A stretch of DNA of 64,000 bases from an uncultured Desulfobacteraceae bacterium. Lineage in GTDB: Bacteria > Desulfobacterota > Desulfobacteria > Desulfobacterales > UBA11574. Shown here piece after piece: positions 30,638 through 64,000 of this stretch. Made by a program: the position numbers and the translations under genes. The notes under the pieces are model-generated. The model was not told where the DNA came from. It was given only the letters and a program-made list of their open reading frames with translations, and did no database searches. Location: positions 8,827 through 72,826 of the forward strand of contig CAZBOB010000001.1 in assembly GCA_964492995.1 (NCBI GenBank). The letters run 5' to 3'. How positions within the stretch are numbered: the first letter of the stretch is position 1; each line of letters begins with the position of its first letter.

Positions 30638-30672
30638 GATTGAAAATTGAAGATTGAAGATTGAATAATCGA
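30638..30672. repeat. Tandem heptamer array (GATTGAA AATTGAA GATTGAA GATTGAA TAATCGA)
   Basis: Read directly from the sequence. Lies 32-66 nt upstream of the DUF72 start, in the lexA-DUF72 spacer. Confidence 0.8.
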
Positions 30673-30720
30673 GAAACCATATCAATATTTCATCAGGTTT
30701 TCCCCTTAAATATTCAATAG

Positions 30721-45516: not shown

Positions 45517-45570
45517 TGATTCTATAATTTTATTGACTTTTTTGTTATTTTTTAATTAGTTAAATATTTA

Positions 45571-45757: not shown

Positions 45758-45814
45758 TAAAAGCCAAACTATCGTGAGCTGAGTTTTGCTTTAAAAATCT
45801 TGAGGATAAAAAGG

Positions 45815-45855
45815 GAAATCCCCGGATTGATTTAATTTCGGTCCGGGTTTTTTTT
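45815..45855 (+). terminator. Riboswitch 1 expression-platform terminator
   Basis: CCCGGA...TCCGGG stem followed by TTTTTTTT, ending just before the btuF start. Confidence 0.55.
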
Positions 45856-45868
45856 GAGTAAAAGCATA

Positions 45869-47781: not shown

Positions 47782-47782
47782 T

Positions 47783-48800: not shown

Positions 48801-49670
48801 ATGGAAAAAGATGAACTTCGAGCAAAAATCTATTCAAAGATAGACGAGATTCCAACACTTCCCGTAGTCATTCCTAAGCTTTTAACATTGATGGAAAGCG
48901 ACAAGACTGATGCCGCTGACATCGCCGATGTAATTTACCGTGATCCTGCTCTTACGTCAAAAATTCTGAAAGTCGCAAATTCTGCCTATTACGGTTTTTC
49001 AAAGGGAATATCAAGTCTTGAAAAAGCGGTGCCTCTGCTCGGTTTTAACATGGTCCAATCCCTGGCGTTATCCATCGGTGTCTTACGCAGCTTTCCCGCC
49101 GGGAAAAAATCGACCCATTTTTCACAACAGGATTTATGGATACACAGCTTAGCTGTGGCCACGGTTATGAAAGAACTGGGTAAAAGATTTGGTAAGGGAG
49201 ATGACCGGGAATATCTTTTTATCATCGGTCTTCTTCACGATATCGGCAAAATTGTTCTGGATCAGTATTTTGGAGAACTTTTTCATCGTGCCTTAGAAGA
49301 ATTTCATAATTTGGGAAATATCGAACTTCACCGAGCAGAAACTAGAAAAATCGGCGTTGATCATGGTGAGGTTGGTGCAATGCTTTTAACACGATGGAAA
49401 TTTCCTGATAAAATTTGTAATGCCATCGCCGTTCATCATCGATCAGAAATTCCGGAAGGAACAAATTCCGAGGATGTTGCCATGCTGCGAATTGCCGACG
49501 TCCTGGCCCATGAACTTTCTCTGGAAGAGGGAGAAAATCCCATGCCTCCCGAGATTCATGATGCTGATCTTAACATCTTTGAAATGGGTGAAAATCAACT
49601 GGAAGATATTAGAGCTTATTTATTAGACCTTAAAGATGGAATCTATGACTTTTACAGATCTATGAGTTGA
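48801..49670 (+). CDS. HDOD-domain signalling protein
   Basis: LPTLPVVIPKLLTLM...DPALTSKILKVANSAYYG...GLLHDIGKIVL...DHGEVGAMLL is the HDOD pattern. Confidence 0.8.
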   Translation: MEKDELRAKIYSKIDEIPTLPVVIPKLLTLMESDKTDAADIADVIYRDPALTSKILKVANSAYYGFSKGISSLEKAVPLLGFNMVQSLALSIGVLRSFPAGKKSTHFSQQDLWIHSLAVATVMKELGKRFGKGDDREYLFIIGLLHDIGKIVLDQYFGELFHRALEEFHNLGNIELHRAETRKIGVDHGEVGAMLLTRWKFPDKICNAIAVHHRSEIPEGTNSEDVAMLRIADVLAHELSLEEGENPMPPEIHDADLNIFEMGENQLEDIRAYLLDLKDGIYDFYRSMS

Positions 49671-51600
49671 CGATTTCTTCTTCCTTCCTGAAAGGTTCCA
49701 GCCACACCACATCATAAGGAAGCAGTGTAATACAAAGCTTTTGATCTTCGGTCATCCACTCCACCCCGCTTACAAGATCATACCAACGGTTTTCACCGGT
49801 GCCAAGCTGAGAAAGAGGAACCTCTATCCGGCAGACTTTGTTAGTGACATTGGTCAGGGTAAGAATAGACTGGTCACCTTCAGGAGAAATTCTTAAAACC
49901 GAAAATATATCGGAGGATGCCATTAAAACATGTTGATCCCCATTCGGATGGAAGGCACGTTTCTTTGTTCGGATGGCAATAAGCCTTCCGAACTCCCGGC
50001 TGATACGTGAGAGTTTTGAAAGAGGATCCTGCAGCGCTTCGGTAATCGCCCTGCCGTCGATCACCTTGCGGTTGATATCCCGTTTTGATTTCGTGGCCAG
50101 GACGGCCTCGATATCATTTTGAGTTCCAATCAGGCTGTGCATGTAAATTCCCGGAACGCCCTGAATAACCAGGGCAATTATCCTGGAAGCAACAAACCGT
50201 TTAACCTGAAAAGCGATATCCTCTTCGCTGTGCTCGTGATTAAGTGCGCTGAACCAGGTTATGTTGATCTCGTAAGGGACTTCATTTCCGTCTTCTCCGG
50301 TCTTGTAAGAAATGAGTCCGCCGTGATCTTCCGTCTTCTTAATAATGAAATCGATTTCTTCCTGCGGAAGGATGTTCTTGACCGCCATAACTCCTATACC
50401 ATCATGGGAGTCTAAAAAATTGAAGAAGCAAGTTGTTTTGGAAGGTGTCTTCAGATCTGCCGCCCACCTGGAAAGGACTGTGGTATCCTCTGAATAGAAT
50501 GTATACAACACAAGAGGGGGTAAGGCGAAATTGTATACCATTTGTGCTTCATCTCGACCATTACCGAAATATGAAATGTTTTCTTCATGGGGAACATTGG
50601 TTTCTGTTATCAAAGCCACACCGGGTGCCACAACATTCAAAATGTCACGAAAGATTTTAACGATTTCATGGGTCTGCTCCAGATGAACACACCGGGTCCC
50701 GGGTTCCGCCCACAGATAGGTTACCGCATCCAGACGAATAATTTCTGCTCCGTAACGCACATACATAAGCAGGATCTCGGCAACCCGCATAAGGACGTCG
50801 GGATTAGAATAATTGAGATCGATCTGATCAGCAGAAAATGTGGTCCAGACATGGCGTGTACCATTGATGGTCTTGTACTCCGAAAGGATGTCAGAGGTTC
50901 GAGGACGGAAGATCATACTGCGTTGCTCTGTCGTGAGTTCAGCTGGAGACGAAAAATGTATAAAAAAATCCCAGTAATAGGGATTGCCGTTCAAAAATTC
51001 CTGAAACCAGCGGCTTTTGGCTGAAATATGGTTGATGACCCCGTCAAACATGAGCTGGTAATGATGTTGCAGTTCAGCAATGTCATCCCAGGTCCCCAGA
51101 TTAGGATCCACTGTTTCAAAGTCTATGATAGAAAACCCTCTGTCCGAAGAGTACGGAAAGAAGGGGAGTATATGGATGGTATTGATCGTCCCCTCCAGAT
51201 ATGTATCACAGAATTTAGCCAGCGTAGCCAGGGGAGAACGCTCTTCACCGCGTAAAAGGTCACCGTATGTGATAAGAATGATATCCTTTTCAGTAAACCG
51301 CTCTTCAGGATCGAGCCCGCTTTCTATTTCGATCATTTCCAGAGCTTTATGTGCATAATAGACATCAATGATTCGTTCCAGTTCGGGCATATAGGCCTTT
51401 GCAACGGTTTCCCCGTAAATAAAAGCCAGCCTGGCGAATATACGATCTCTGGTTTCTGATGGAATTTTTAAAACAGGCCTTGAATAATCCGGTTCTTCAT
51501 TATGGGCGATTTTGGTGGTCTCAAAGCCTTTTCCAAGACAGGTCATTTTGCGGGTCCTCGTAGCAAAGTCATCTTTTAGATTTGTGTACGAAACCGTCAA
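49660..51600 (-). CDS. GH13 sucrose-phosphorylase-family sugar phosphorylase with N-terminal extension
   Basis: Alpha-amylase-family motifs (DGVINH, IIRLDAVTYLW, ALITETNVPH, FNFLDSHDGIG). The start is uncertain (TTG at 51600, ATG at 51546). Confidence 0.75.
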   Translation of the reverse strand: MTVSYTNLKDDFATRTRKMTCLGKGFETTKIAHNEEPDYSRPVLKIPSETRDRIFARLAFIYGETVAKAYMPELERIIDVYYAHKALEMIEIESGLDPEERFTEKDIILITYGDLLRGEERSPLATLAKFCDTYLEGTINTIHILPFFPYSSDRGFSIIDFETVDPNLGTWDDIAELQHHYQLMFDGVINHISAKSRWFQEFLNGNPYYWDFFIHFSSPAELTTEQRSMIFRPRTSDILSEYKTINGTRHVWTTFSADQIDLNYSNPDVLMRVAEILLMYVRYGAEIIRLDAVTYLWAEPGTRCVHLEQTHEIVKIFRDILNVVAPGVALITETNVPHEENISYFGNGRDEAQMVYNFALPPLVLYTFYSEDTTVLSRWAADLKTPSKTTCFFNFLDSHDGIGVMAVKNILPQEEIDFIIKKTEDHGGLISYKTGEDGNEVPYEINITWFSALNHEHSEEDIAFQVKRFVASRIIALVIQGVPGIYMHSLIGTQNDIEAVLATKSKRDINRKVIDGRAITEALQDPLSKLSRISREFGRLIAIRTKKRAFHPNGDQHVLMASSDIFSVLRISPEGDQSILTLTNVTNKVCRIEVPLSQLGTGENRWYDLVSGVEWMTEDQKLCITLLPYDVVWLEPFRKEEEIVNS

Positions 51601-51726
51601 CGTTGCTCATCTATTATATCGACAATTATTATGAAAACTTAAGGAACGAGTGAGTTGGCTTCGCTCAACTTAGATAATATTTTTCTTGACGTAGCTGTCT
51701 TATTTAGTCTAAATAGTCTTTGTTTT

Positions 51727-51955
51727 GTTCAGATGCTCGCTTTGAGCTTAATAGGGAACCCCGTTTTAATCGGGGACGGGCCCGCCGCTGTAGTCGGGGA
51801 CGAACGCCGTTTAAATCCACTGGAAATTGTCATAGTCTCTGTTATTTGTCTTAACCAATAACAAAACGACCAATGACACCGGGTGTGTTATTCACATCAG
51901 GTCCGGGAAGGTACGGTTAGTAGAAAGATCCGAGAGTCAGAAGACCTGTCTGAAC
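51727..51955 (+). promoter_or_regulatory. Cobalamin riboswitch 2 (paralog of riboswitch 1)
   Basis: Same P1 (GTTCAG/CTGAAC) and the same core AATAGGGAACCCCGTTTTAATCGGGGACGGGCCCGCCGCTGTA. B12 box AGTCAGAAGACCTGTC. The peripheral insert is longer. Confidence 0.8.
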
Positions 51956-52012
51956 TTAAAGGCGAAATCATCGTGGCTGAGATTCGCCGCAAGATCTTGA
52001 GGATAAAAAAGG

Positions 52013-52058
52013 GAAATCCCCGGATCGATTTTAAATCGGTCCGGGGATTTTTTTTGGT
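52013..52058 (+). terminator. Riboswitch 2 expression-platform terminator
   Basis: AAATCCCCGGATCGATTT / AAATCGGTCCGGGGATTT long stem followed by TTTTTT. Confidence 0.75.
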
Positions 52059-52061
52059 TTT

Positions 52062-52205
52062 TTTAAAGGGAAGGAAGTGTGAATCTTCCGCTGCCCCGCA
52101 ACTGTGATCGCGACGAAAGCAGCATTATACCACTGCCCTGTTTGCAAACAGGATGGGAAGGCGCTGCCGGTAGGATGAACGAAAGCCAGGAGACCTGGAC
52201 GAAAC
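52062..52205 (+). promoter_or_regulatory. Cobalamin riboswitch 3 (classical compact type) with an SD-sequestering helix
   Basis: AAAGGGAAGGAAGTGTGAATCTTCCGCTGCCCCGCAACTGTGA ... CCACTG ... GGGAAGGC ... B12 box AGCCAGGAGACCTGG. Downstream, CCTTCCTC-GAG-GGAGGAAAGG can pair across the AGGAGG of the receptor gene. Confidence 0.8.
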
Positions 52206-52248
52206 CTAAACTTTCACCACCTTCCTCGAGGGAGGAAAGGAGGTTTTT

Positions 52249-54393
52249 ATGAAACGTTTTATTTTGTTCTTTTTCTTGGCTGTTTTTTTCTGTAGCTCTT
52301 TATTGGTTGTGTCATCAGTAAACAGGGCATTGGCCCAAAATGGTGAGGAAAAAATAGTGAAGCTGGATGAGATTGTGGTGACAGCTCCTCGCAAAACAAT
52401 GGTGATCGATACCCCTGCATCGATTTCGGTGATTACCGCTCAGGAGCTGGAGGAGCAAGGGATCAAGAATATAGGGGATGCCATTGTCAGGATTCCGGGC
52501 GCCTATGATGACGGCGCATCAAAATACTATTTCAGCATGAGAGGAACACGCAGTTCCTCCACTGGAGGTCCACTCGTGTTGATCGACGGGGTCCCGCAAA
52601 ATATGGGTATGTCTGACTACAACTACTTTGAGACGATTCCGGTGTCGGATATTGATCGCATTGAGATCCTTCGCTCTCCTGCTTCAACGGTCTTTGGCGC
52701 TGACTCAGCCCGTGGAGTGATCAGCATTATCACCAAAAAAGGCAAGAAGGATCAGCCCTTCAGCGTTAAGGCCAAGACATCTTACGGGTCCTGGCAAACC
52801 TCCGACACATATGCGACCTTATCCGGCGCCGTGGATAACTGGGATTTTTTCGTAAATGGCACCTTCATGGATACGGAAGGCTACGTACACGATGACCAGA
52901 GGCGTGCCGCAGGCCGCTTCAAAGGAGGCTATAGTTTTTCGGATCATGCCAGACTGGGAATTAATCTCGGGTATACTGATAACGATTACGAGATGGTGAG
53001 AGGCAAAAACAAATATGCCCTCGAAATAGATCGCCGGGCTGATGAATTTAAAGAGAAACCGACTGCGGAAAAGACATCGTATAACGAAAATGAACAGGAT
53101 GTTTCCAGCTATGCGCTTGATTTCAGCTACAAAAACAGCGGATTATTCTTGGATTCTCTTGCCGCGGTGACACTTTTTGATAAAGAAGCTAAGTATAACT
53201 GTTATCAGTATACTAAACCCAAAAACGTTTATAATGATGACCGCGATCAGAATAGATATAAATTTGATCTCTCCGGAGGATATAACTTCGGCGAGGATTT
53301 CTTTAAGTATACCCCCGTATTGGGATTCAACGTAGAAAAAACTGCGCTTGAACAGCGCCGCGATTATTTTAACGACCCGGTTGGCAAAGCCGCCAGCAAA
53401 AGGAAGGCAGATATTGACTATGATCAGGAAAAGTTCGGTATATTCTTGCAGAATCAGCTGCTCTTCGGCGATAACTGGGAGCTGAATTTAGGTGTCAGAT
53501 GGGATAAGGTAACCTATGATGTCAAAAATAAAAATGGTGACAGTATCGATAAAGATCACACTGAATATTCCTGGTCTGTTGCGCCTGCATATCACTGGAA
53601 TGATCGGGCCACCACATACGCATCGGTCGGCAAATCATACTGGTACCCGGCAGCCTATTATTACCAGGCGGCTATGGAGAAGATGAATCCGGAAAACCTC
53701 CCCCAGGATTTGGAACCGGAGAGCAGCATGGTTTACGAAATAGGCCATAAGCATAGCCTGGCAAGATGGGCAAACATTAATCTTACACTCTTTTGGATGG
53801 ATTATGAGGATAAATTTGCTATATTCTATGATGAGACACAGACATATGCGGGATACAAAAACGTTGGCGACGCAGAGCACAAGGGGATTGAACTGGAGAT
53901 GGATGGAAGGATCTGCCGTTGGTTCGGCTACAGGCTGTCCGGTACCTATATGGAGGCTGAATGGACCAGTGGCAGGGAGCGAGTTTATACCTGGGAAACC
54001 CTGACAAGCAAGGACTTTCGCAACCTTGATGGAAAGGAGCTGAACAGGATTTCCAATTACAAATATATGGTCGGGTTCGATTTTTATCCCATAAGAAATC
54101 TGAAGTGCAACCTCGACATTAATGGAACCGGGCCCTATTGGGTGGATTATTTGAACCGCATCGAGTATGGCGCAAAGACCACGTTTGATATGGGCATCCG
54201 TTACGAGTTAAAAAAGTGGTCCTTCTGGGCCCTGGGAAAAAACATCTTCGATAGGGAGATAGAATCGGTCTACAATTCAAGTGGTGAACTAAATTCAACT
54301 TCGGCTGAAATAGAGCGGAACGGCAAGTATGCCAATCTTTACTATCCCAGGAATGGCCAGTATTTTGAGGTTGGTGTCACATACCACTTTTAA
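52249..54393 (+). CDS. TonB-dependent outer-membrane receptor (BtuB-like by context)
   Basis: Signal peptide, TonB-box-like DEIVVTA, plug motifs (IEILRSPASTVFGADSARGVISIITKKG), and a 22-strand-size barrel ending ...VGVTYHF. Preceded by B12 riboswitches. Confidence 0.85.
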   Translation: MKRFILFFFLAVFFCSSLLVVSSVNRALAQNGEEKIVKLDEIVVTAPRKTMVIDTPASISVITAQELEEQGIKNIGDAIVRIPGAYDDGASKYYFSMRGTRSSSTGGPLVLIDGVPQNMGMSDYNYFETIPVSDIDRIEILRSPASTVFGADSARGVISIITKKGKKDQPFSVKAKTSYGSWQTSDTYATLSGAVDNWDFFVNGTFMDTEGYVHDDQRRAAGRFKGGYSFSDHARLGINLGYTDNDYEMVRGKNKYALEIDRRADEFKEKPTAEKTSYNENEQDVSSYALDFSYKNSGLFLDSLAAVTLFDKEAKYNCYQYTKPKNVYNDDRDQNRYKFDLSGGYNFGEDFFKYTPVLGFNVEKTALEQRRDYFNDPVGKAASKRKADIDYDQEKFGIFLQNQLLFGDNWELNLGVRWDKVTYDVKNKNGDSIDKDHTEYSWSVAPAYHWNDRATTYASVGKSYWYPAAYYYQAAMEKMNPENLPQDLEPESSMVYEIGHKHSLARWANINLTLFWMDYEDKFAIFYDETQTYAGYKNVGDAEHKGIELEMDGRICRWFGYRLSGTYMEAEWTSGRERVYTWETLTSKDFRNLDGKELNRISNYKYMVGFDFYPIRNLKCNLDINGTGPYWVDYLNRIEYGAKTTFDMGIRYELKKWSFWALGKNIFDREIESVYNSSGELNSTSAEIERNGKYANLYYPRNGQYFEVGVTYHF

Positions 54394-54611
54394 TTGGGAA
54401 CAGCAAAGCACGGGGTGGATTTTAAGGTATCCGAGGTAAGCGGGAACAAGGTTAATACGAGGCAGGAAGAAATGTGGGGAGCGTAGCGACGAAGCAATCC
54501 CCTCACTAAGAGATTGCATCGTCCGCCAAAGCACTCTGGCGGACTCGCAATGACAGGACTAATAATAATTTTCAAATACCCTTGCGAAATTCGGGATAAT
54601 TCGGAAGCTAA

Positions 54612-55370
54612 ATGACAATGTTAAAACAATTATGGATAACCGGTGTCCTGATCGCTTTTTCTGTCTTTGGAATAAAAGTAGGTTTGGGTCTGGGAGCTCA
54701 GATATACAACAGGACCGTGCCCCCCGGTAAAAAAGTCATCTTTCTTGCCGGATGCCTTTTTATCTATCTGATCCTTTTTTTCTGCCTCTATTACGTGATT
54801 ACCCATTTTAATTTGTTAAATTATTTGGATCAGTTTGTAAATATGCTTCAATACGGCATGCTGCTTCATTTAGCAGTGGCTCTTGGGCTTCTTCTCTGGG
54901 GAGGCAAGTTGCTCCTCCAAAACCCTGCTGAACACATGCATCTTCCCTTTCGGGCCAGTTTGCTCCTGATTGTGCCCTGCCCGGTATGCGCCACGGTTAT
55001 CCTGCTCAACCTTTCTTTGGCCTGTTCGCTTTTTGCCGTTTCCCCCTTCCTGACCACGCTGACCCTTTTTGTCCTTTTTAGCAGTATTATAGTTCTGACC
55101 GTTGGCCTGGTCTTTCCGTTCCGTCATAAGATCGCATCCGGCAGTTCTTTTTTGGGGTTGGCAATGGTATTGGTTTCCCTCTATTTTCTTATTACTGTCA
55201 TCATAGCTCCCATATATCCAGAAATAAAATCCGCGTTTGCCATGGCTATTTCCAACAGCCCGGTAAGTCAGATAGACCTTTTTCACACGGCTATTTTAGG
55301 AGTGATTGTCTTTATTCTTGGATGTGCCGGATTCATAAAGACTTACATTGCAAAAGGAGGAATTAAGTGA
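54612..55370 (+). CDS. Polytopic membrane protein with intramembrane CPxC motif (DUF2162-like by recollection)
   Basis: 252 aa with about 7 hydrophobic segments. LLLIVPCPVCATVILL places PCPVC inside a predicted helix. Has a 4-nt overlap with the next gene. Confidence 0.6.
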   Translation: MTMLKQLWITGVLIAFSVFGIKVGLGLGAQIYNRTVPPGKKVIFLAGCLFIYLILFFCLYYVITHFNLLNYLDQFVNMLQYGMLLHLAVALGLLLWGGKLLLQNPAEHMHLPFRASLLLIVPCPVCATVILLNLSLACSLFAVSPFLTTLTLFVLFSSIIVLTVGLVFPFRHKIASGSSFLGLAMVLVSLYFLITVIIAPIYPEIKSAFAMAISNSPVSQIDLFHTAILGVIVFILGCAGFIKTYIAKGGIK

Positions 55371-55990
55371 ACATCTTTCCAGCGTTTCAAACGATCCTGT
55401 ATACGATTTCAACCGCCCTGCTTTACCCTGTGGTAATCCTGCTCATTATTCTCTGTCTCTGGCTGATGGGGTATTTAGGGGGCTTTATGGCGGAATGGGT
55501 AAAGCGAAGACATTTTCGTTCAAATGATCCCCTGGCAGGTTGTCTGGAAACGATTCAAAAAGCAGAGTACTTTCCGTCTGAAATCGGTGAAAATCTGCCT
55601 CTCCATATCACACACTATGCAAAGGAATTAGAAGAGATTATCAAGGGTGACGGCCTGTTCATAGAAGAACAGGTGGAAGATCTGAATCAACGCAAAGAAC
55701 ATTCACTGATCAGGGAAGTGGACAAGATACGCCTAATCGTGCGCATCGGTCCGAGTCTCGGGCTTATGGGTACACTTATTCCCATGGGCACAGGCCTCGC
55801 CGGTCTGACCCAGGGAAACATGGCGCAGCTTTCTTCCAGTCTTATTCTGGCCTTTACAACAACGGTTGTGGGGCTGGCCATTGGAATCACGGCCCATTTC
55901 TTTTCCGTTGTCAAAGAACGCTGGGTCACCGAAGATATGCGTCATATAAACCTGATCACAGAAGCCATGACACAGAACATTAAATCTTGA
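55367..55990 (+). CDS. MotA/TolQ/ExbB-family proton-channel protein
   Basis: IGPSLGLMGTLIPMGTGL...LSSSLILAFTTTVVGLAIGITAHFF matches the conserved C-terminal two-helix signature of the ExbB/TolQ family. Confidence 0.8.
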   Translation: MNIFPAFQTILYTISTALLYPVVILLIILCLWLMGYLGGFMAEWVKRRHFRSNDPLAGCLETIQKAEYFPSEIGENLPLHITHYAKELEEIIKGDGLFIEEQVEDLNQRKEHSLIREVDKIRLIVRIGPSLGLMGTLIPMGTGLAGLTQGNMAQLSSSLILAFTTTVVGLAIGITAHFFSVVKERWVTEDMRHINLITEAMTQNIKS

Positions 55991-56056
55991 AAATTGAGCA
56001 ATAGTCAATTCCTTAATTTCTTCCCTCTTTGCAAAGGGGGATCGAGGGGGATTTAA

Positions 56057-56401
56057 ATGAAATACCTAAAAAATAGCCGCCGGGGACGTTTGGGAAAAGC
56101 AAAGCAGGAAGATCCTTTGCTCGGTGTAGCGAATCTTTTTGACGTTGCCCTGGTATTCATTGTGGCGCTCCTTCTTTCCCTCATGGCAACTTACCAGATT
56201 TTGGATTTCTTCTCTGAAAAGAGTGAGATTACTATTGTAAAAAAGAATGAAGATGGGCAAATGGAGATTATCACCAAAAAAGGCAAAGAGATTAAGATAG
56301 AAAAAGTAACCGACAGGAAAATTGGCGGAGAAGAAGGAACTAAGTTGGGGACAGCTTATCAACTAAAAGATGGAAGGATGATTTATGTTCCGGAAGAATA
56401 A
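56057..56401 (+). CDS. Single-pass protein with ExbD/TolR-like topology (DUF2149-like by recollection)
   Basis: 114 aa. A basic N-terminus, then NLFDVALVFIVALLLSL (compare the ExbD motif IDV..VLLIFF), then a small soluble domain. Overlaps the next gene by 17 nt. Confidence 0.55.
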   Translation: MKYLKNSRRGRLGKAKQEDPLLGVANLFDVALVFIVALLLSLMATYQILDFFSEKSEITIVKKNEDGQMEIITKKGKEIKIEKVTDRKIGGEEGTKLGTAYQLKDGRMIYVPEE

Positions 56402-59400
56402 AATTAAGGATGGTTTACAACTTAAGTCAATCGTTGCCTCAATTTTCGTATTGCTTATAGTCCAGATGCTTGCACTGCCAGTAGCGGTAAGTAACGAGGC
56501 AGCAGGAAGGGTTTTAGAAAAACCCAAGATAATAATTATACCTACCTGTGAGGCTTCTTCTCCTTATCAGCTTCAAAAGGCAAAAGAGGAAGTTAGGAGC
56601 TTCCTGGATGTCAGTTTATACAGCGGAACAGGTAAGGGATACTTACCACCAGCAGAGGGGCTGGACCTCAGCGCCTATGATGTGATTTTCGTGGTTGGTA
56701 ATTCGCCTGCGACTTTTAAATTGAATCAGGCCCTTGATGAGGCAAAGAAGAAGGCGACTGTCGTCGTGGTGGCTCCTGTCATGGTGGAAGGGAATGTCGA
56801 CCTTACTGAACATCCATGGTTAGAACAATATTGGTTTAACAGATGCCAGGAAAATTTCCGCAGGCTAATGATCTATCTGGGAGTAAAATTCTGCGGATTG
56901 AAGACACAGGTAGAAAAACCTATAGTCTTCCCTGAAAGGGCCATTTATCATCCGGATGCAAAGAGAATTTTTGAAACAACAGATGATTACCTGAGGTGGT
57001 ATATCGATAATACTGCCAAAACTCATCATATATATAACTCTAAAATGCCAACCATAGGGATATTATTCTACAGGAGCTCTTATACAAAGAAAAAATTAAA
57101 GGTAATAGATGCCTTAATCAAAGCAATAGAAAAAAGAGGATGTAATGCCATAGCATTATATGGGTTTCATGGCTTTTGTTTGGATAAATTCTTTATTAAG
57201 GATGGAAAGCCAGTCATTGATTCCATAATTTCTTTGACTTACAGCTTAGGTTATTCGAATCAACAAAAGGAAGTTGAAGAAGCGGAATCTATAGATGTTC
57301 CATTTTTACAGGCATTAAAACATTATCGTAAGACCTCTCAGGAATGGGAGGGGAGTTTAGAAGGGCTGGCAACAGATATGCTCCCATATGTTCTTTATGC
57401 TGAAATGGATGGGATGTTTGAGCCAATGTTGATAGCTGGCAAAGTAATGTTGGATACAGGAAGAGATCACTACAAAGTTATAGACTATCAGATTGACTGG
57501 CGGGTAGAGAGGGCTATTGCTTGGGCAAGATTACACCGGATGAAAAATTGGGATAAAAAGATAGCTATAACATACTATAGCGAGGGTGGCGGAAAGGCAA
57601 ATATAGGAGCAGATATTGACTATTATCTGGATGTTCCATCAAGTCTGGCCAATCTTTTCAAGGAAATGAAATCAAGGGGATACAATCTCGGAGATAAGCT
57701 GGTATTAGATAGCGCTAAACTTTCTAAGGCAATGGCTGAAGTGGGAAGCAATGTTGGGGTATGGGCTCAAGGTGAATTAAGAAGAAGAGTAAAAGATGGA
57801 AGTATAATACTAATTCCAGAACAGAAATATCTGAAATGGTTTAGCGAGCTTTCTGAAGATAAAAGGAATGGGGTAATAGAAAGATGGGGCCAGCCGCCTG
57901 GTGAAATAATGGTTTACAAAGATAGCGGTAAAAAATATATTGTTATACCAAAGATTCGGTTTGGCAATGTAATACTTCTTCCCCATCCCACCTGGGGCTT
58001 TTTGCAGGATGAAGCAATACTTTATCACCAAGGGGCAACACCCCCTCATCATCAATATATGGCCTTTTGGTTTTGGTTAAATAGAGAATTTAAGGCTGAC
58101 GCAGTCTTTACTGCTTTTACCCAGATTTCATTAATGCCGGGCAAACAGATTGGTTTATCAAGGCATGATTGGGGTAGCCTACTACTCCAACATGTCCCCA
58201 ACATTCATCCCTTTCCGATTCAGGGTAACGGAGGTGTGCATAATAAAAGAAGGGCAAATGCACTCTTGATAGATTATATGCCTACTATTGTTTCATCCGA
58301 GTTGTATGGAGAACTATTGGGGTTGCAGAAGAAGATGTCTCTTTATGAAGAAGCACATAATGCATTAAAGGAAGAATACAAAGAGGGAATATTAAAAGAG
58401 TGTACGAGACTGAAGTTGGATAAGGATCTCAATGTGAAAATTGATTTAATACAATTTGAAGACCTTATAGGAAAACTGAATCACTACCTTGATCAGATAA
58501 AAAGAGAACATATGCCCTATGGCTCCCATACGTTAAGTGAACCCCCCACAGGAGAACCTTTAGTTGAAATGATATCATCGATGCTCGGCAAGGAATTTAA
58601 GGAGCATATTACTAAGTTAAATTCTAAAAAAGAGCGATTGGGTGAAAGATTACTGAAAGAAATTATCCTGAACAGATTAACTCCAGAGGAGGCGCAAAAG
58701 ACTGTTCTAGGCCAGATATCCAGGGAGATTGGTGATGATTTGAATTTAGCAATAGAGTATGCCAGAAGGATAGATGCCTGCCATATAGAGATACCCCGGA
58801 TACTGGATGCATTTGAAGGGAAATATATACTGCCCGGGCCAATGGATGATCCAATCAGAAACCCTGACGCTTTACCCACAGGCCGAAATCCCTACACCTT
58901 TGATACCAGAAGCATTCCTACTAAAGAAGCCTGGCAGATTGGTAAAAGGATGGTAGATCAATTATTAGAACAGCACTTGAACAAAAATAAGAAATATCCT
59001 CGCCAGATAGCCTTTGTTCTTTGGTCCAGTGAAACCACCAAGCATCATGGGATTATGGAGGCAGAGATACTTTATTTACTCGGTGTAAAGCCTATCTGGG
59101 ATAAAAAAAGCCGGGTAGAAGATGTTGAACTGATAGATAAGGCCGATCTTGAGAGGCCTAGAATAGATGTTCTGGTTATTACCTCTGGATTATATAGGGA
59201 ACATTTTCAGAATCAGATTCGTTTGATTGATAAAGCCGTTCGTTTAGCAACTGAAGTGAGTGAATCATCAAATTATGTCAAGCAAAATGCCCGGATAATC
59301 GAAAGCAAGCTTTTAAAGAATAATTATGCAGAATCTGAAGCTGTTGATTTGTCAAAGGCAAGAGTTTTTTCTGAAGCAATGGGTGCTTATTCGCCAAACC

Positions 59401-60467
59401 TTCAATTTGCTGTCCCTGCCAGCGACAGTTGGCAGGACGATACCCAACTCAGCGACCTCTATGTTAATAGGATGGGTCACACATATGGAGAGAATGTGCA
59501 GAGTAAGCAGGTAAAAGATGTATTTAGACAGAATCTTAAAACAGTTAAAGCCGGGGTATTTAGTCGCAGTTCAAATGTTTATGGTGTGTTAGACCATCCT
59601 ATGGTGGCAGCCTACTTTGGAGGGTTAAAGTTGGCTGTTAGAAATACATCAAATAAAAAGTTAGATATGTATATAACCAATCTTAAGGATAAAAATAATC
59701 CAGAAGTAGAGACTCTGGAGCACTTTTTCAATCGAGAGCTTAGGTCAAGGTATTTTAACCCCAAATGGATTAGAGGGATGATGGAGCATAAATATGATGG
59801 GGCAAGGTATATGGCTACATTTACCGAAGACCTATGGATATGGGATGTTACCAGCCCTGAGATGATAACTGAAGATATGTGGAATGAGGTTAATGAAGTT
59901 TATGTAAAAGACAAATATAACCTCGATTTAAAAAACTACTTTAACAAAAACAACCCTCACGCCTTTCAGTCAATTGTCGCTACAATGTTAGATGTGGTAA
60001 GGAAGGGATACTGGGATGCACCTGAGGGGATAAAAAAATCCCTCGCCAAGGAATATGCCATAAGTGTGATTGAAAAAGGCATTGCCTGCTGTCATCATAC
60101 CTGCAACAACCCGGCCTTAAATCAGATGGTGGTGAATATCATTTCTTTGCCCGGGCTATTATCTCCAGAATTAGTTAATCAATTTCAGGCGATTATCTCC
60201 AAGGCAATGGGAATGAGCATGGAAGAAGCGGTGGAAAAAAGAAAGACATTGCAGGAGAAACTTGCTAAGGTTACCGAAGAGATTCGTCAGGAGGAAAAGG
60301 TAGTTAAAGGTAAGAAACCGGATAAAGAAAAGATTGAAGGATATGAGATGGTTGAAGAAAAACCGGAAGATACAAAAATAACCGTCTCGGGCTCCTCATG
60401 GATAGTAATGGCCATTGTCATTGGCCTCCTGAGCCTTTTGGCCATCGGGTGGAGAAAGAAGATATAG
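56385..60467 (+). CDS. CobN/Mg-chelatase-family large subunit homolog with an N-terminal signal peptide and a C-terminal membrane anchor
   Basis: 1360 aa. The body is colinear with the CobN family (e.g. ...YYSEGGGKANIGA..., ...HQYMAFWFWL..., ...PTGRNPYTFD..., ...VLWSSETTKHHG..., ...DHPMVAAYFGG...). N-terminus MFRKNKIKDGLQLKSIVASIFVLLIVQMLALPVAVS. C-terminus SSWIVMAIVIGLLSLLAIGWRKKI. Confidence 0.8.
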   Translation: MFRKNKIKDGLQLKSIVASIFVLLIVQMLALPVAVSNEAAGRVLEKPKIIIIPTCEASSPYQLQKAKEEVRSFLDVSLYSGTGKGYLPPAEGLDLSAYDVIFVVGNSPATFKLNQALDEAKKKATVVVVAPVMVEGNVDLTEHPWLEQYWFNRCQENFRRLMIYLGVKFCGLKTQVEKPIVFPERAIYHPDAKRIFETTDDYLRWYIDNTAKTHHIYNSKMPTIGILFYRSSYTKKKLKVIDALIKAIEKRGCNAIALYGFHGFCLDKFFIKDGKPVIDSIISLTYSLGYSNQQKEVEEAESIDVPFLQALKHYRKTSQEWEGSLEGLATDMLPYVLYAEMDGMFEPMLIAGKVMLDTGRDHYKVIDYQIDWRVERAIAWARLHRMKNWDKKIAITYYSEGGGKANIGADIDYYLDVPSSLANLFKEMKSRGYNLGDKLVLDSAKLSKAMAEVGSNVGVWAQGELRRRVKDGSIILIPEQKYLKWFSELSEDKRNGVIERWGQPPGEIMVYKDSGKKYIVIPKIRFGNVILLPHPTWGFLQDEAILYHQGATPPHHQYMAFWFWLNREFKADAVFTAFTQISLMPGKQIGLSRHDWGSLLLQHVPNIHPFPIQGNGGVHNKRRANALLIDYMPTIVSSELYGELLGLQKKMSLYEEAHNALKEEYKEGILKECTRLKLDKDLNVKIDLIQFEDLIGKLNHYLDQIKREHMPYGSHTLSEPPTGEPLVEMISSMLGKEFKEHITKLNSKKERLGERLLKEIILNRLTPEEAQKTVLGQISREIGDDLNLAIEYARRIDACHIEIPRILDAFEGKYILPGPMDDPIRNPDALPTGRNPYTFDTRSIPTKEAWQIGKRMVDQLLEQHLNKNKKYPRQIAFVLWSSETTKHHGIMEAEILYLLGVKPIWDKKSRVEDVELIDKADLERPRIDVLVITSGLYREHFQNQIRLIDKAVRLATEVSESSNYVKQNARIIESKLLKNNYAESEAVDLSKARVFSEAMGAYSPNLQFAVPASDSWQDDTQLSDLYVNRMGHTYGENVQSKQVKDVFRQNLKTVKAGVFSRSSNVYGVLDHPMVAAYFGGLKLAVRNTSNKKLDMYITNLKDKNNPEVETLEHFFNRELRSRYFNPKWIRGMMEHKYDGARYMATFTEDLWIWDVTSPEMITEDMWNEVNEVYVKDKYNLDLKNYFNKNNPHAFQSIVATMLDVVRKGYWDAPEGIKKSLAKEYAISVIEKGIACCHHTCNNPALNQMVVNIISLPGLLSPELVNQFQAIISKAMGMSMEEAVEKRKTLQEKLAKVTEEIRQEEKVVKGKKPDKEKIEGYEMVEEKPEDTKITVSGSSWIVMAIVIGLLSLLAIGWRKKI

Positions 60468-60512: not shown

Positions 60513-61307
60513 ATGCCTAAGATGAAAACACCTATTGTTATAACAGCTTTCGGCACCACCACAAAGGCGATGGATACCTATGATTATATGGACAGGATTA
60601 TCAGAGAAAGATTTTCTAACCATAAAATAAAATGGGCCTATTCATCAAGGATGGTCAGGGATTTTAGCAAAAGGAGAAAAAACATTGATTTAAAGAGTCC
60701 CCAACAGGTGCTGTCCGATCTTGTCGCTGAAGGTTATCCGTGGTCCATTGTTCAGTCCCTGCACCTTCTCTGCGGCCATGAATTCTACCGTCTAGTCCAG
60801 GAGGTGAAACAGAGTCCTGTAAGAACATCCATGGGACTGCCTCTTTTAAGCGGTCCCGAGGATTATGAGGATGTGGTGAATGAACTCGGCAGCACCTTCC
60901 CTGACTATGCAAATGAAGCGGTTGTCCTGGTCGGACATGGAACAGATCATCCTGCATGGTCTTCATATATGGCCTTGCATCACATGTTTCGTGAAAAATT
61001 CGGCCCCAGGATTTTTATGGGTGTGGTGGAAGGATATCCTTCGAGAAAAAAACTCGTTGAAATGGTTAAGAAAACGGGCTTTAAAAAAGTTTTGCTTATC
61101 CCTTTTATGATAGTTGCAGGGGTGCATTTCATAGAAGACCTTTCAGGAGAGAAAGATTCCTGGAAAACAGCTTTTGAAGAGGAACAAATTCTGGTTTCAA
61201 TTGAAAAAGCTGGGCTCGGTTTTCAGCCAAGTATCATCGATATCCTCTGCAGACATATCCAGGAAGCACTCAATGTGATTCCTTTATCCCAAAAAATTAA
61301 CGGATAA
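60513..61307 (+). CDS. cbiK: Sirohydrochlorin cobaltochelatase (anaerobic pathway)
   Basis: IVITAFGTT...LKSPQQVLSDLVAEGY..IVQSLHLLCGHEFYRL...VLVGHGTDHPA parallels Salmonella CbiK (VVSFGTS...LQKLAAQGY..IQSLHIINGDEY). Confidence 0.85.
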   Translation: MPKMKTPIVITAFGTTTKAMDTYDYMDRIIRERFSNHKIKWAYSSRMVRDFSKRRKNIDLKSPQQVLSDLVAEGYPWSIVQSLHLLCGHEFYRLVQEVKQSPVRTSMGLPLLSGPEDYEDVVNELGSTFPDYANEAVVLVGHGTDHPAWSSYMALHHMFREKFGPRIFMGVVEGYPSRKKLVEMVKKTGFKKVLLIPFMIVAGVHFIEDLSGEKDSWKTAFEEEQILVSIEKAGLGFQPSIIDILCRHIQEALNVIPLSQKING

Positions 61308-61317: not shown

Positions 61318-62697
61318 ATTAAAGGAATAATCATAGCAGGCACAATGAGCGGATGCGGGAAAACCACGGTTACCCTTGGTTTTATGGCATCTTTAGCGAA
61401 ACGCGGTCTTAATGTGGCCCCGTTTAAGGTAGGACCTGATTTTATTGACCCCGGTCACCATACCCGTATCACCGGAGTCGCCAGCAGAAATCTGGACGGC
61501 TGGATGCTTTCAAAATCATATAATGTGAATAATTTTCTCAAGCACACCCAATCCGCCGATATTGCGATTGTTGAAGGGGTAATGGGTCTTTTTGACGGTT
61601 ATGACGGCAAGAGTGAAGCCGGCTCTACCGCTCAACTGGCCAAATGGATCGGCCTTCCGGTTATCCTGGTTGTTGATGCCAGAAGCATGGCCCGGAGCGC
61701 TGCAGCCCTTGTTCAGGGATTTGAACGGTTTGATCCTGATCTTACATATGCCGGTGTTCTCTTTAATAATATAGCCAGCAGCCGGCATCTGGAGTATTTA
61801 AAAGAAGCTCTGAAGGATAATGTCACCATGCCCTGTCTGGGAGGCATTCTTCATGATAAGGAGATATGGATCCCTGAAAGACACCTGGGTCTTGTTACTC
61901 AGCAGGATCATCCGTTTGGCGGAGAAAAGATCGATCTGTTTGCAAATGTTATTGAAAATACTCTGGATATTGATGCCTTTTTGAATCTTCTTCCGGAGTT
62001 GGAAACGCCCGAAAAGAAACCGGAGCCTCAAGAATATCCGGTAAGCCCTAAGGTAAAAATCGGGCTGCCAATGGACAATGCGTTCTGTTTTTATTATGCA
62101 GATAACCTCGATATACTGACAGAACAGGGTGCAGAACTCGTTTGTTTCTCGCCCATTAACGACGCATATCTTCCGGATGATCTGGACGGATTATATCTGG
62201 GCGGCGGGTATCCCGAGCTTTTCGCAAAGCAGCTTTTTGAAAATTCAGGTTTGCGAAAACAGATTAAGGAAAAAAGCTTGCAAGGCATGCCCATTTATGG
62301 AGAATGCGGTGGATTCATGTACCTTTGCAGGGAAATACGCGACACGAACGGAAACTTGTTTCCCATGACCGGATGCTTTCCATTTGTGACATCCATGTTT
62401 ACCCGCTTAAAATCATTAGGATATCGGGAAATAACCTTTACAAAAGATATGGTTATCGGAAAAAGGGGCCAAACCGTCAGAGGGCATGAATTTCACTATT
62501 CGGAACTAACAGAATATTCTGAAAATGTAGAGACGGTTTATCAGGTATCGCCCAGGAAAGAAATCAAAATAACAAAAGAAGGATATATGGTAAACCACAC
62601 CCTGGGAAGTTACAACCACCTTCATTTCGGCAGTTGTCCGGAAGTGGGCAAACAATTTGTCGAATCATGTTTGCAGTATAAAGAGGAAAGAACATAA
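61318..62697 (+). CDS. cbiA: Cobyrinate a,c-diamide synthase
   Basis: GKTTVTLG P-loop and a C-terminal glutamine amidotransferase domain (YGECGGFMYL, GHEFHYS). The conserved IKGIIIAGT precedes the first ATG (61345), so the start is probably non-canonical (ATT at 61318, 5 nt after AGGAGG). Confidence 0.85.
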   Translation: MKGIIIAGTMSGCGKTTVTLGFMASLAKRGLNVAPFKVGPDFIDPGHHTRITGVASRNLDGWMLSKSYNVNNFLKHTQSADIAIVEGVMGLFDGYDGKSEAGSTAQLAKWIGLPVILVVDARSMARSAAALVQGFERFDPDLTYAGVLFNNIASSRHLEYLKEALKDNVTMPCLGGILHDKEIWIPERHLGLVTQQDHPFGGEKIDLFANVIENTLDIDAFLNLLPELETPEKKPEPQEYPVSPKVKIGLPMDNAFCFYYADNLDILTEQGAELVCFSPINDAYLPDDLDGLYLGGGYPELFAKQLFENSGLRKQIKEKSLQGMPIYGECGGFMYLCREIRDTNGNLFPMTGCFPFVTSMFTRLKSLGYREITFTKDMVIGKRGQTVRGHEFHYSELTEYSENVETVYQVSPRKEIKITKEGYMVNHTLGSYNHLHFGSCPEVGKQFVESCLQYKEERT

Positions 62698-62702
62698 ATG
62701 TT

Positions 62703-63317
62703 ATGAAACCCGAAGAAATCGAAACGTTAAGTTTTAAAATCATTGATAAAGAGGCAGGTCCGCATAATTTTTCTTCTAATGAATGGCGTATTGTGCAGAG
62801 GATGATCCACACCTCTGCCGATTTTGAATATATAAAGACGGTTCGATTCCACCCCAAAGCGATCACAGCAGGAGTAAATGCCATCAGGCTGGGAAAAACC
62901 ATCATCACGGATACAAATATGGCAAGGGCCGGTATTCGCAAGCAAGATGTTCAGCGCTTCGGCAGCACCATAAAATGTTATATTAATGATCCGGAAGTAA
63001 TAAAGATTTCGGTAAAGACAGGAAAAACAAGGGCGGAAGTGGCTGTCGATACTGCCATTCCCGTGATTAAAGACGGCATATATGTTATCGGTAACGCGCC
63101 AACAGCACTTTTTCGCCTCATTGAACGGGTAAAGGAAAATAAAGCCAGACCCGCTCTAATTATCGGGCTTCCTGTGGGATTTGTAAATGCAGCGGAATCA
63201 AAGGCGGCACTGATTGAGATGGATTATCCATATATTTCCAACGCGAGTAGAAAGGGAGGTTCAAACATTGCGGCAAGCGTGGTAAATGCTTTAGGAAAAA
63301 TGGCTGTAACCGTCTAG
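62703..63317 (+). CDS. cbiC: Cobalt-precorrin-8 methylmutase
   Basis: 204 aa. IHTSADFEY, ITDTNM, and VIGNAPTALFRL are CbiC/CobH signatures. Confidence 0.85.
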   Translation: MKPEEIETLSFKIIDKEAGPHNFSSNEWRIVQRMIHTSADFEYIKTVRFHPKAITAGVNAIRLGKTIITDTNMARAGIRKQDVQRFGSTIKCYINDPEVIKISVKTGKTRAEVAVDTAIPVIKDGIYVIGNAPTALFRLIERVKENKARPALIIGLPVGFVNAAESKAALIEMDYPYISNASRKGGSNIAASVVNALGKMAVTV

Positions 63318-63364
63318 ATTTTTAAGACAAAAAAATATCGTACCGGGTGATGAATGAGGAACCT

Positions 63365-64000
63365 ATGAAAAATAAAAAAGGGATTTTATACGGCTTGGGT
63401 GTGGGACCCGGTGATCCGGAATTGATCACCCTAAAGGCCACACGAGTATTAAATAGTGTGGATATTGTTTTTGCGGCAGCCTCCACAAAAAAGAGTTACA
63501 GCCTGGCCATAAGCATTGCAAAACCGTACATTCCGGATCTGACCCCCATAAGGATGCTTAGGTTTCCCATGACAAGGGATAAGAATGAAACGCAAAAAGC
63601 ATGGAAGGATCATGCACTGACAATTATTAAAGAACTGGAACAGGGATATAATGTGGCTTTTATAACCCTGGGTGATCCCATGACCTATTCAACCTATGGT
63701 TACATTTTAAAGACCATCCAGACCCTGGCACCACACCAGCCGGTTATCAGCATACCCGGCATAACCTCTTACCACGCCTCAGCAGCCTGCTTGAATACCC
63801 CTCTTGTAGAGGGTGAAGAATCACTTTTAATTACTTCCGGCGCCAGGGGGGGAGATCGATTTAGACAGCTTTCCGTGAAGCCGGAAACCGTTGTTTTTCT
63901 GAAAGCATACCGTAATGTAAAAGACATAACCTCCGCTCTTGATGAAGCCAATCGCCTTGAGAACAGTGTAGGAGTCACAAACTGCGGGCTTCCGGACCAG
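63365..64000 (+). CDS. cbiL: Cobalt-precorrin-2 C20-methyltransferase, N-terminal part (3' end outside window)
   Basis: Not in the ORF track because it runs off the window. My translation reads MKNKKGILYGLGVGPGDPELITLKATRVLNSVDIVF...ITLGDPMTYSTYGY...IPGITSYHA, a tetrapyrrole methylase of CbiL/CobI type. Confidence 0.8.
   Translation, partial: MKNKKGILYGLGVGPGDPELITLKATRVLNSVDIVFAAASTKKSYSLAISIAKPYIPDLTPIRMLRFPMTRDKNETQKAWKDHALTIIKELEQGYNVAFITLGDPMTYSTYGYILKTIQTLAPHQPVISIPGITSYHASAACLNTPLVEGEESLLITSGARGGDRFRQLSVKPETVVFLKAYRNVKDITSALDEANRLENSVGVTNCGLPDQ

Follow-up and report, generated by a model that had tools for sequence, protein, structure and literature searches.

An Hmu/BtuS-type envelope module under cobalamin riboswitch control and its mosaic CobN-like protein in a Desulfobacterales bacterium

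HmuS is a periplasm-facing, membrane-bound homologue of CobN that has a transmembrane (TM) segment at each end (cryo-electron microscopy structure 9d26) and uses NADH, but no ATPase partner, to strip haem of its Fe(II) (PMC12583661); its authors state that most exported CobN homologues cannot be annotated. In the hmu locus, HmuU is ExbB-like, HmuV is ExbD-like and HmuT is a polytopic membrane protein (PMC10100974). BtuS denotes exported CobN-like proteins of B12-regulated receptor clusters that were predicted to serve in metalloporphyrin salvage (Rodionov 2003, as cited in PMC6460266), and a Bacteroides fragilis BtuS1/BtuS2 double mutant was impaired on haem as iron source (PMC6460266). The hmu-like operons of B. 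fragilis are preceded by a cobalamin riboswitch and include a cbiK-like gene (PMC10100974). In Pseudomonas aeruginosa, the Zur-regulated genes PA1922-PA1925 encode a TonB-dependent receptor, a CobN-like protein, an 'ExbD' and a hypothetical protein (PMC4542158, PMC13083405), an operon suggested to explain raised cellular cobalt (PMC4542158). Here we describe a related module, composed of a TonB-dependent receptor, three membrane proteins of the DUF2162, MotA and DUF2149 families (the engine) and a 1360-residue CobN-like protein, that lies in a 64,000-nucleotide (nt) stretch of DNA from an uncultured, sulfate-reducing Desulfobacterales bacterium (the window).

With moderate confidence, we read this locus as a B12-repressed scavenging module of the Hmu/BtuS type for a cobalt-bearing chelate or corrinoid, positioned at the head of the cbi operon. 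The parts of the module, their conservation and regulation, the lost catalytic residues of the CobN-like protein and the mosaic build of its gene are documented below; the topology is predicted, and the substrate, the direction of any chemistry, the role of DUF2162 and the coupling of the proton-driven unit to the head are inferred. Since systems of this kind (hmu, BtuS) are known and the B12-linked form has been noted before, both as exported BtuS proteins and as riboswitch-preceded hmu-like operons (PMC10100974; Rodionov 2003, as cited in PMC6460266), the overall class is not new. As far as the searched literature shows, a clade of exported CobN-like proteins that lacks the His/Glu metal site, a head swap in situ with retention of the anchor, and receptor-free archaeal modules have not been described. 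Little is understood of how anaerobes in sulfidic habitats poor in metals acquire the cobalt that B12 requires, and what the numerous exported 'CobN' homologues of archaea and bacteria do is acknowledged to be an open question; the present locus, by way of a conserved riboswitch, connects one of these systems with the demand for B12.

Gene content and B12 control

The module consists of five co-directional genes on the plus strand of the window. The gene for the TonB-dependent outer-membrane receptor (52249-54393; 714 residues; Pfam Plug and TonB_dep_Rec_b-barrel) is followed by those for a polytopic inner-membrane protein (54612-55370; 252 residues; Pfam DUF2162, 1.4e-36), a proton-channel protein of the MotA/TolQ/ExbB family (55367-55990; 207 residues; Pfam MotA_ExbB PF01618, 6e-11), a single-pass protein (56057-56401; 114 residues; Pfam DUF2149, 5.9e-32) and the CobN-like protein (56385-60467; 1360 residues; Pfam CobN-Mg_chel, 1034 bits). 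Calling of open reading frames (ORFs) placed these five genes exactly where the initial annotation had put them, with a 218-nt gap, a 4-nt overlap, a 66-nt gap and a 17-nt overlap at the successive junctions, and the Pfam search bore out all of the families that it had predicted. The window thus holds the co-directional cluster of five gene kinds that defines an Hmu-type envelope module.

Genes of anaerobic cobalamin synthesis continue the envelope block on the same strand. The sirohydrochlorin cobaltochelatase CbiK (60513-61307; Pfam CbiK, 3e-57) is encoded directly behind the CobN-like protein and is predicted to be cytoplasmic because its N-terminus has no signal peptide. The stretch from 61345 to 64000 then encodes, by Pfam match, a CbiA/CobB-type a,c-diamide synthase (61345-62697; CbiA/GATase_3), CbiC (62703-63317) and a corrin methylase (63365 onwards, the window ending at 64000). 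A terminator scan revealed no strong terminator between the envelope genes and the cbi genes.

Two cobalamin riboswitches had been noted ahead of the block, and Rfam confirmed both of them directly 5' of the receptor gene, each on the plus strand, matched over the full model and well above the RF00174 gathering score of 31.5 bits. Aptamer 1 spans 51714-51967 (94.2 bits, E 3.8e-22) and aptamer 2 spans 52031-52207 (83.3 bits, E 5e-19). A hairpin resembling an intrinsic terminator, found by terminator scan and inspection of the sequence (52009-52055, plus strand; 20-bp stem followed by a T run), is the probable expression platform of riboswitch 1. Aptamer 2 ends about 40 nt before the receptor start codon, and a pyrimidine stretch that follows it can pair with the Shine-Dalgarno region; the CCUUCCUC / GAGGGAGG stretch beside the ribosome-binding site suggests translational control by riboswitch 2. 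Tandem cobalamin riboswitches precede the module in at least two independent Desulfobacterota loci, L076 (677-1168) and the window (51714-52207).

A third cobalamin riboswitch (45559-45768, plus strand; RF00174 by Rfam) precedes a corrinoid-type ATP-binding cassette (ABC) importer of BtuF, FecCD and ABC_tran proteins (45559-48577, plus strand; Pfam). This BtuFCD-like unit has no receptor gene of its own, and the receptor encoded at 52249 may serve both units.

To place the module among its relatives, one genome per species was scanned, which yielded 79 loci in which ORFs were called and compared with the window proteins. By this approach, the gene set was found to recur in dozens of genomes, so the arrangement is not due to chance. 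In Desulfobacterota, the string DUF2162-MotA-DUF2149-CobN-like has a receptor gene in front and often CbiK behind, and the full five-gene set is also present in L038, L039, L043, L046, L067, L075 and L082. RF00174 lies directly upstream in 11 of the 13 Desulfobacterota-type loci, namely the window, L039, L043, L047, L066, L067, L069, L075, L076 (in tandem), L079 and L082; none was detected upstream of the module in L038 and L046. Of the loci with the module, L069 is from Desulfonema magnum and L046 from a Desulfosarcina metagenome-assembled genome. The order in the sister locus L082 is riboswitch, receptor, DUF2162, MotA, DUF2149, CobN-like protein, a further receptor, CbiK, CbiC, three methylases and CbiG. 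CbiK is encoded behind the CobN-like gene in L043, L066, L076 and L077 and next to it on the opposite strand in L067. The B12 and cbi context to which the initial annotation had pointed is thus supported.

CbiZ is a corrinoid-remodelling amidohydrolase. In L076 (7304-9385) and L062 (514-2511), the gene immediately 5' of the CobN-like gene encodes a fusion of BtuF (Peripla_BP_2) to CbiZ that starts with a signal-like segment, which suggests corrinoid trimming outside the cytoplasm. Taken together, the riboswitches, the embedding in cbi genes and the BtuF-CbiZ fusions connect the module of Desulfobacterota with the supply of cobalt or corrinoid for B12. Partial copies of the fusion occur in L077 and L012. 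In L043, a CbiK-like protein encoded behind two CobN-like genes (13543-14430) has a clear signal peptide (MKKIALYSMLLVLLFALLPVNAS) and, unlike the window CbiK, may be periplasmic; a second cobalamin riboswitch (14479-14663) follows its gene.

Outside the Desulfobacterota, the module takes other forms. The version of Burkholderiales, Sphingomonadales and Bacteroidota is receptor-MotA-DUF2149-CobN-like, and many archaeal versions (Methanofollis, Methanoculleus, Methanothrix, Methanolobus, relatives of anaerobic methanotrophic archaea, Nitrosotalea) have no receptor. When the count was restricted to loci flanked by 3 kb or more on either side, MotA and DUF2149 were present in all 17 bacterial loci and a receptor in 16 of these; the corresponding numbers for 17 archaeal loci were 11 and 0. 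In 14 bacterial loci the stop codon of the DUF2149 gene either overlaps the start of the CobN-like gene or is no more than 14 nt away from it. A small MotA/DUF2149 unit appears to be partnered with a CobN-like head even where there is no outer membrane. In two Methanomicrobia loci, CbiA-like amidase genes adjoin the archaeal modules (L005 14455-15783, L007 14097-15623); in methanogens, the amidase could be the F430 enzyme CfbB instead of CbiA, a hint that nickel may be involved in addition to cobalt.

The initial annotation had found no AAA+ partner genes in the block. This held more widely: a protein-family search of the window ORFs revealed no ChlI-, ChlD-, CobS- or CobT-like gene elsewhere in the 64 kb, and neighbour clustering within ±10 kb of the 79 loci revealed neither a recurrent AAA+ chelatase partner nor a recurrent TonB, although such genes may lie elsewhere in the genomes. 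A recurrent P-loop family that was considered as a possible AAA+ partner proved to be ABC transporters; with all neighbours clustered, these, archaeal S8 proteases and the BtuF-CbiZ fusion were the only other recurrent families. Neither a TonB gene nor a further ExbBD gene is present in the cluster or the 64-kb window, and TonB may be encoded elsewhere.

The CobN-like protein: topology, metal site and mosaic structure

By hydropathy, the CobN-like protein has a K/R-rich start followed by a hydrophobic segment (residues 16-34) and ends in a TM segment (residues 1336-1354; nt 60390-60446) followed by an RKKI tail. Based on these two ends, its body is predicted to lie outside the cytoplasm and not in the cytoplasm as expected of a class I chelatase. 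The membrane-anchored, extracytoplasmic topology that had been proposed for it is common to the clade, as a C-terminal TM segment was found in 80 of the 83 relatives that are complete, compared to 69 for a hydrophobic segment at the N-terminus, the misses being mostly over-extended ORFs in GC-rich genomes. Its assignment to the CobN family likewise stood, the match to PF02514 (CobN-Mg_chel) covering model positions 2-1087 of 1090 and residues 148-1214. All NCBIfam CobN/BchH equivalog scores fell below their cut-offs. The best match of solved structure was HmuS (9d26, 428 bits), ahead of ChlH (418 bits) and CobN (352 bits).

HmuS H538, which corresponds to CobN H554, a Co2+ ligand, is described as a strictly conserved His of the whole superfamily, and H538A abolishes HmuS activity. 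In the window protein, the canonical motif G(T/K)HG(S/N)xE(W/F)LPGK is replaced by FTAFTQISLMPGK at residues 575-587 (nt 58107-58145). Pairwise alignments to HmuS, ChlH and two CobNs all leave a gap of 2 residues in place of 'HG' (FTAFT--QIS), and all four likewise have a gap (GNG-GV) in place of the partner Glu of GEG (HmuS E577, equal to CobN E593). The working chelatase assumed in the initial annotation is thus not borne out, since the His/Glu metal ligands of both CobN (H554/E593) and HmuS (H538/E577) are in gaps here.

This loss is not peculiar to the window. An alignment of 198 CobN-like proteins included 94 of an FTQ type, in which the canonical His and GEG are missing, and 95 of an HG type, in which both are present. 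About half of the exported relatives sampled therefore have no metal site of the kind thought invariant in the superfamily. Judged by these alignments, the head in the window genome is a member of the FTQ-type clade and not a canonical chelatase. The FTQ-type has conserved positions of its own: His at window position 608 is found in 71% of FTQ-type proteins and is absent from the HG-type, and positions 1070-1071 are D/E-H in 76% of the FTQ-type compared to mostly D-N in the HG-type. In an ungapped stretch, window D1070-H1071 lies two residues off register from HmuS D1208/H1209 (CobN D1100). A CCHHTC motif (residues 1235-1240; nt 60087-60104) is shared by the two types, most of whose exported CobN-like members have kept it in archaea as well as in Desulfobacterota. 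It is a candidate metal hand-off site and is not mentioned in the consulted sections of the HmuS paper and preprint.

Comparison to the sister locus L082 revealed two parts of different affinity within the cobN-like gene. The proteins of L082 are 93% (DUF2149), 82% (MotA), 75% (DUF2162), 59% (CbiK) and 49% (receptor) identical to those of the window, and its CobN-like protein is HG-type. DNA similarity of 80-89% runs through the DUF2162, MotA and DUF2149 genes, ends at 56397 and returns at 59735. Between these points, window residues 141-1116 are 52-65% identical to the FTQ-type proteins P0004-P0015 but only 33% to L082 and 30-34% to other HG-type proteins of Desulfobacterota. By contrast, residues 1231-1360 are 84% identical to L082 and 46-62% to the other Desulfobacterota HG-type proteins (57-62% for L075, L039 and L043), compared to 23-46% for P0004-P0015. 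A sliding comparison placed the crossover near residues 1165-1190. On these identity patterns, the cobN-like gene is a mosaic in which a foreign FTQ-type part, comprising the signal/anchor and the body to about residue 1170 (56385-59900, plus strand), sits on about 180 native C-terminal residues, which include CCHHTC, a charged linker with EGYEM, the TM anchor and the RKKI tail (59877-60467, plus strand). The FTQ-type head was recombined into a locus type that normally carries a His-containing (HG-type) head, with the native anchor kept. The same combination of body and tail is present in P0002 and P0003 (80-85% identical to the window protein), and thus the chimera has persisted through divergence.

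Only the head was imported: FTQ-type genes elsewhere (L083-L085) have as neighbours engine proteins that are just 24-56% identical to those of the window. Co-transfer of the receptor with the head was considered and rejected: its closest relative is the receptor of L082, whereas receptors beside FTQ-type genes are at most 35% identical. As had been suspected by eye, the cobN-like gene is richer in AT (GC content 0.40 compared to 0.456 for the window, with a dip to 0.38-0.41 over 56.5-60 kb). As a sign of foreign origin this dip is weak, given that L082 itself has 41% GC and the native tail is Lys/Glu-rich, and so the case for a mosaic is made from the identity patterns and not from GC content.

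Retention of the C-terminus is also seen among paralogues. Tandem CobN-like genes of one genome (L002, L011, L012, L040, L043, L046, L048, L052, L060 and L078) encode bodies that are 31-46% identical and last 40 residues that are 50-97% identical; the HG-type and FTQ-type paralogues of L002 have bodies 37% and tails 90% identical. In bacteria and archaea the tail has the pattern (E)G(Y/S)EM, a spacer of about 10 residues, S-G-S/A, a TM helix and basic residues. One possibility is that the shared anchor binds a partner specific to the genome, for which the co-encoded engine would be the simplest candidate. Heads are exchanged and anchors stay, and the window provides a natural chimera for experimental test.

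Proposed mechanism and rival explanations

The receptor has a signal peptide and a TonB-box-like DEIVVTA at residues 40-46 (nt 52366-52386). The DUF2162 protein has about 7 hydrophobic segments by hydropathy, and the PCPVC that had been noted in one of its predicted helices was confirmed at residues 122-126 (nt 54975-54989), with P, C, P and C invariant in 25 homologues. Pfam at E <= 10 yielded DUF2162 only, and an AlphaFold2 model (predicted local distance difference test score, pLDDT, 74) gave no fold match in the PDB (best Foldseek E 1.1). The MotA-family protein is a divergent member with 3 TM segments; it scores as a MotA_ExbB channel (42.6 bits compared to a PF01618 cut-off of 22.9) and shares the motif P.LGLmGTLIP...AF.tTv.Gl..G with 36 homologues, and it is remote from the solved ExbB, TolQ and MotA, with only a weak PDB match. 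In the DUF2149 protein, Asp29 (NLFD, nt 56141-56143) stands at the start of the single TM helix; it shows no variation among 26 homologues and is conserved (>=90%) in another set, of 38.

Based on these parts, the following route is proposed. When adenosylcobalamin is scarce, the tandem riboswitches, one of terminator type and one acting at the ribosome-binding site, would permit expression. The receptor would then import a corrinoid or other cobalt complex, a substrate suggested by the regulation and gene context, and the periplasmic CobN-fold head, held by its C-terminal helix in the inner membrane, would capture the chelate and process it or pass it on. The FTQ-type head may act through other ligands (candidates are H608, D1070/H1071 and CCHHTC) or as a binding and hand-off protein. 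With its intramembrane PCPxC, DUF2162 is a likely inner-membrane conduit for metal or ligand; metal handling by this CPxC protein had been proposed in the initial annotation as well. MotA/DUF2149 would form an ExbB/ExbD-like proton-driven unit whose partner, judging from its conservation in archaea, may be the CobN-like head and/or DUF2162 and not only the receptor. The product would feed the B12 pathway encoded downstream (CbiK, CbiA, CbiC and methylases). A link to cobalt or metal ions is favoured by the homologous PA1922-PA1925 operon and by the gene neighbourhoods of the nearest FTQ-type relatives from other lineages: L083 (the P0009 locus) and L085 (the P0004 locus) have no B12 riboswitch and lie among genes for DUF4198, two receptors, a DtxR-type repressor that includes a FeoA domain, FeoA, FeoB and a ZIP transporter, a setting that suggests a metal-ion regulon.

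A bolder form of this proposal, which we advance tentatively and regard as rather unlikely in full, is that DUF2162-MotA-DUF2149 is a proton-driven engine of bacteria and archaea that docks interchangeable CobN-fold heads by a genome-specific C-terminal anchor (EGYEM...SG[SA]-TM-basic tail), with proton-motive force replacing the AAA+ ATPase for work on metal-tetrapyrroles; in the window it would free or re-load the cobalt of corrinoid-like chelates at a site unlike those of the characterised chelatases. Coupling of engine and head is favoured by the retention of MotA/DUF2149 beside CobN-like genes in receptor-free archaea and by the retention of the anchor when the head is exchanged. That proton-motive force may power chelation is a plausible hypothesis, although soluble HmuS depends for catalysis on NADH and not on such a force. 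Engine-head coupling, if real, would put ExbB/ExbD-type stators to a new use and would drive chelatase-fold chemistry without ATP.

Several points weigh against the proposed route and its bolder form. We know of no enzymatic precedent for removal of cobalt from a corrin. De-chelation is not assured, since the head has no His/Glu metal site. A B12 riboswitch was found in none of the 14 loci tested from Burkholderiales, Sphingomonadales, Bacteroidota and the nearest FTQ-type relatives, and the swapped-in head may thus act on a substrate that has nothing to do with B12. The receptor could not be assigned to a BtuB, haem or siderophore class, as its NCBIfam scores (156 bits for siderophore, 142 bits for hemin and 92 bits for BtuB) all stayed far below the cut-offs and its PDB matches were limited to the plug. 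Homology of DUF2149 to ExbD/TolR was not found beyond the TM Asp motif: D29 aligns with ExbD D25 and TolR D23 over the TM helix only, at an hhalign probability of at most 3% (E. coli ExbD and TolR), Pfam gave no ExbD match at E <= 10, the PDB profile search gave nothing and the AlphaFold2 model was too poor (pLDDT 54.5) for structure search. Thus, the identity of DUF2149 with ExbD, considered as a candidate, is not established. The shared C-terminal anchors could also be an element like a sorting signal or a target of 3'-end gene conversion. In the searched literature, no experimental study of any B12-regulated member was found.

The conventional Hmu wiring is a real if doubtful possibility. 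In this explanation the MotA/DUF2149 pair, together with a TonB from elsewhere, energises the receptor, the CobN-like protein works alone driven by reductant, and DUF2162 is an unrelated permease. It coincides with the published model of HmuR/HmuU/HmuV, in which HmuU/HmuV energise the receptor (PMC10100974, PMC12583661), and it is favoured by the ordinary TonB box of the window receptor and by the autonomy of HmuS in vitro, where the soluble protein turns over haem with NADH and no membrane or membrane potential (PMC12583661). The pairing of motor and receptor in 16 of the 17 fully flanked bacterial loci fits equally. Such wiring does not account for MotA-DUF2149 beside CobN-like genes in 11 of the 17 archaeal loci, which have no receptor and no outer membrane, nor for the conservation of the anchor independently of the head, and no TonB family recurs in the neighbourhoods.

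That the FTQ-type head is catalytically dead and serves in the periplasm only for binding, as a scaffold or as a gate (a corrinoid holder for BtuF/BtuCD or a TonB-like force transducer, for instance), we consider improbable. In favour of this reading, both canonical metal ligands are lost across the 94-sequence clade, contrary to the stated conservation of His-538, the persistence of the chimera in diverged relatives implies selection for some function, and a separate riboswitch-controlled BtuFCD is encoded 4 kb upstream. Against this stand the conserved positions of the FTQ-type itself (H608, D/E-H1071) and the shared CCHHTC, with which an alternative metal site is possible, and the size of a 1300-residue, six-domain protein, large for mere binding.

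It is very improbable that the locus is a true haem-iron system with an HmuS orthologue that takes Fe(II) from imported haem, even though HmuS is the best match of solved structure, the gene content fits hmuRSTUV and the B. fragilis BtuS1/BtuS2 mutant is impaired on haem iron (PMC6460266). In a phmmer alignment to 9d26, the HmuS site-1 haem ligands Met-79 and His-254 correspond to Asn106 and Tyr286, and neither column is conserved in 26 relatives. The methionine-rich insertion of about 120 residues in domain IV of HmuS is absent, as window residues 736-801 span HmuS 700-933 with 0 Met in 66 residues, and no 120-residue stretch of the window protein has more than 8 Met. With His-538 and Glu-577 in gaps, all four HmuS marks tested are missing, and orthology to the haem de-chelatase was rejected. 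The HmuS score is barely above that of ChlH, two cobalamin riboswitches are in control, the module is embedded in cbi genes and no HmuY is encoded. Finally, forward chelation outside the cytoplasm, with cobalt inserted into an imported metal-free corrinoid or porphyrin by proton-motive force, is scarcely credible: CobN-fold members do catalyse insertion, and the periplasm offers neither an ATP source nor an AAA+ partner, but the only characterised exported member works in the de-chelation direction (PMC12583661), the canonical metal site is missing, cytoplasmic CbiK already inserts cobalt and there is no evident source of metal-free corrinoid.

The remainder of the window carries genes of other kinds. 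Between the two riboswitch-controlled units (48801-51600) lie genes for an HDOD/HD-domain protein (plus strand) and an alpha-amylase-family protein (minus strand), a pair likewise placed on other contigs that carry the CobN-like protein of the window. Further upstream are a 1195-residue TamB/AsmA-like protein followed by a 941-residue Omp85/POTRA protein (16670-23099), resembling an outer-membrane assembly pair of the translocation and assembly module type; a set of LexA repressor, DUF72, Y-family polymerase (IMS) and DnaE2-like Pol III alpha (25334-31362, minus strand), resembling an SOS mutagenesis cassette; and a resistance-nodulation-division efflux set (32692-38934) of an outer-membrane factor (minus strand) followed by an HlyD-type adaptor and an AcrB-family pump.

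Comparison with known systems

As in ExbB-ExbD-TonB and TolQ-TolR, a MotA_ExbB protein is encoded in the window ahead of a small protein with one TM helix, the cytoplasmic end of which bears an invariant Asp. It differs in that neither TonB nor TolA is encoded in the cluster, the pair is also found in archaea, and the periplasmic part of DUF2149 has no detectable similarity to that of ExbD/TolR. With CobNST and ChlHID, the window protein shares the fold of the homologous catalytic subunit; unlike these, it is predicted to be exported and anchored, has no AAA+ partners, and the Co2+-binding H554/E593 of CobN are deleted.

The PA1922-PA1925 operon has the same four gene kinds and a proposed link to cobalt or zinc acquisition, and Burkholderiales and Sphingomonas loci of identical content carry FTQ-type heads. 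By contrast to that operon, the window is under B12 and not zinc (Zur) control, and DUF2162, which it includes, was not found in that locus type by BLASTP.

Similarly to the Bacteroidota hmuYRSTUV locus, to which the initial annotation had likened it, the window combines a receptor, a polytopic protein, a MotA/ExbB-type protein with a small single-pass partner and a CobN-fold protein of about 1300-1470 residues with a TM segment at each end, and it does so without ChlI/ChlD or CobS/CobT partners; gene content and the top structure match to HmuS both support the likeness. The two differ in order (R-T-U-V-S-like in the window, Y-R-S-T-U-V in hmu), in the HmuY hemophore, for which no further ORF is available between the riboswitches and the receptor gene, in control (cobalamin riboswitches compared to iron or haem) and in the embedding of the window module in cbi genes. 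Unlike HmuS, the window head has no Met-79/His-254 site, methionine-rich insertion or His-538/Glu-577 dyad.

The window belongs to the BtuS class as summarised in PMC6460266: its protein is CobN-like but distinct from CobN and ChlH, linked to a B12-regulated receptor, predicted to be exported and anchored, and of a kind proposed for salvage of metalloporphyrins or corrinoids. Methanosarcina homologues with 42-43% identity are annotated as 'CobN-like chelatase BtuS for metalloporphyrine salvage'. Unlike the B. fragilis BtuS systems, the module of the window is found in a de novo B12 producer of the Desulfobacterales, and its head is of the FTQ type and, by its identity patterns, chimeric.

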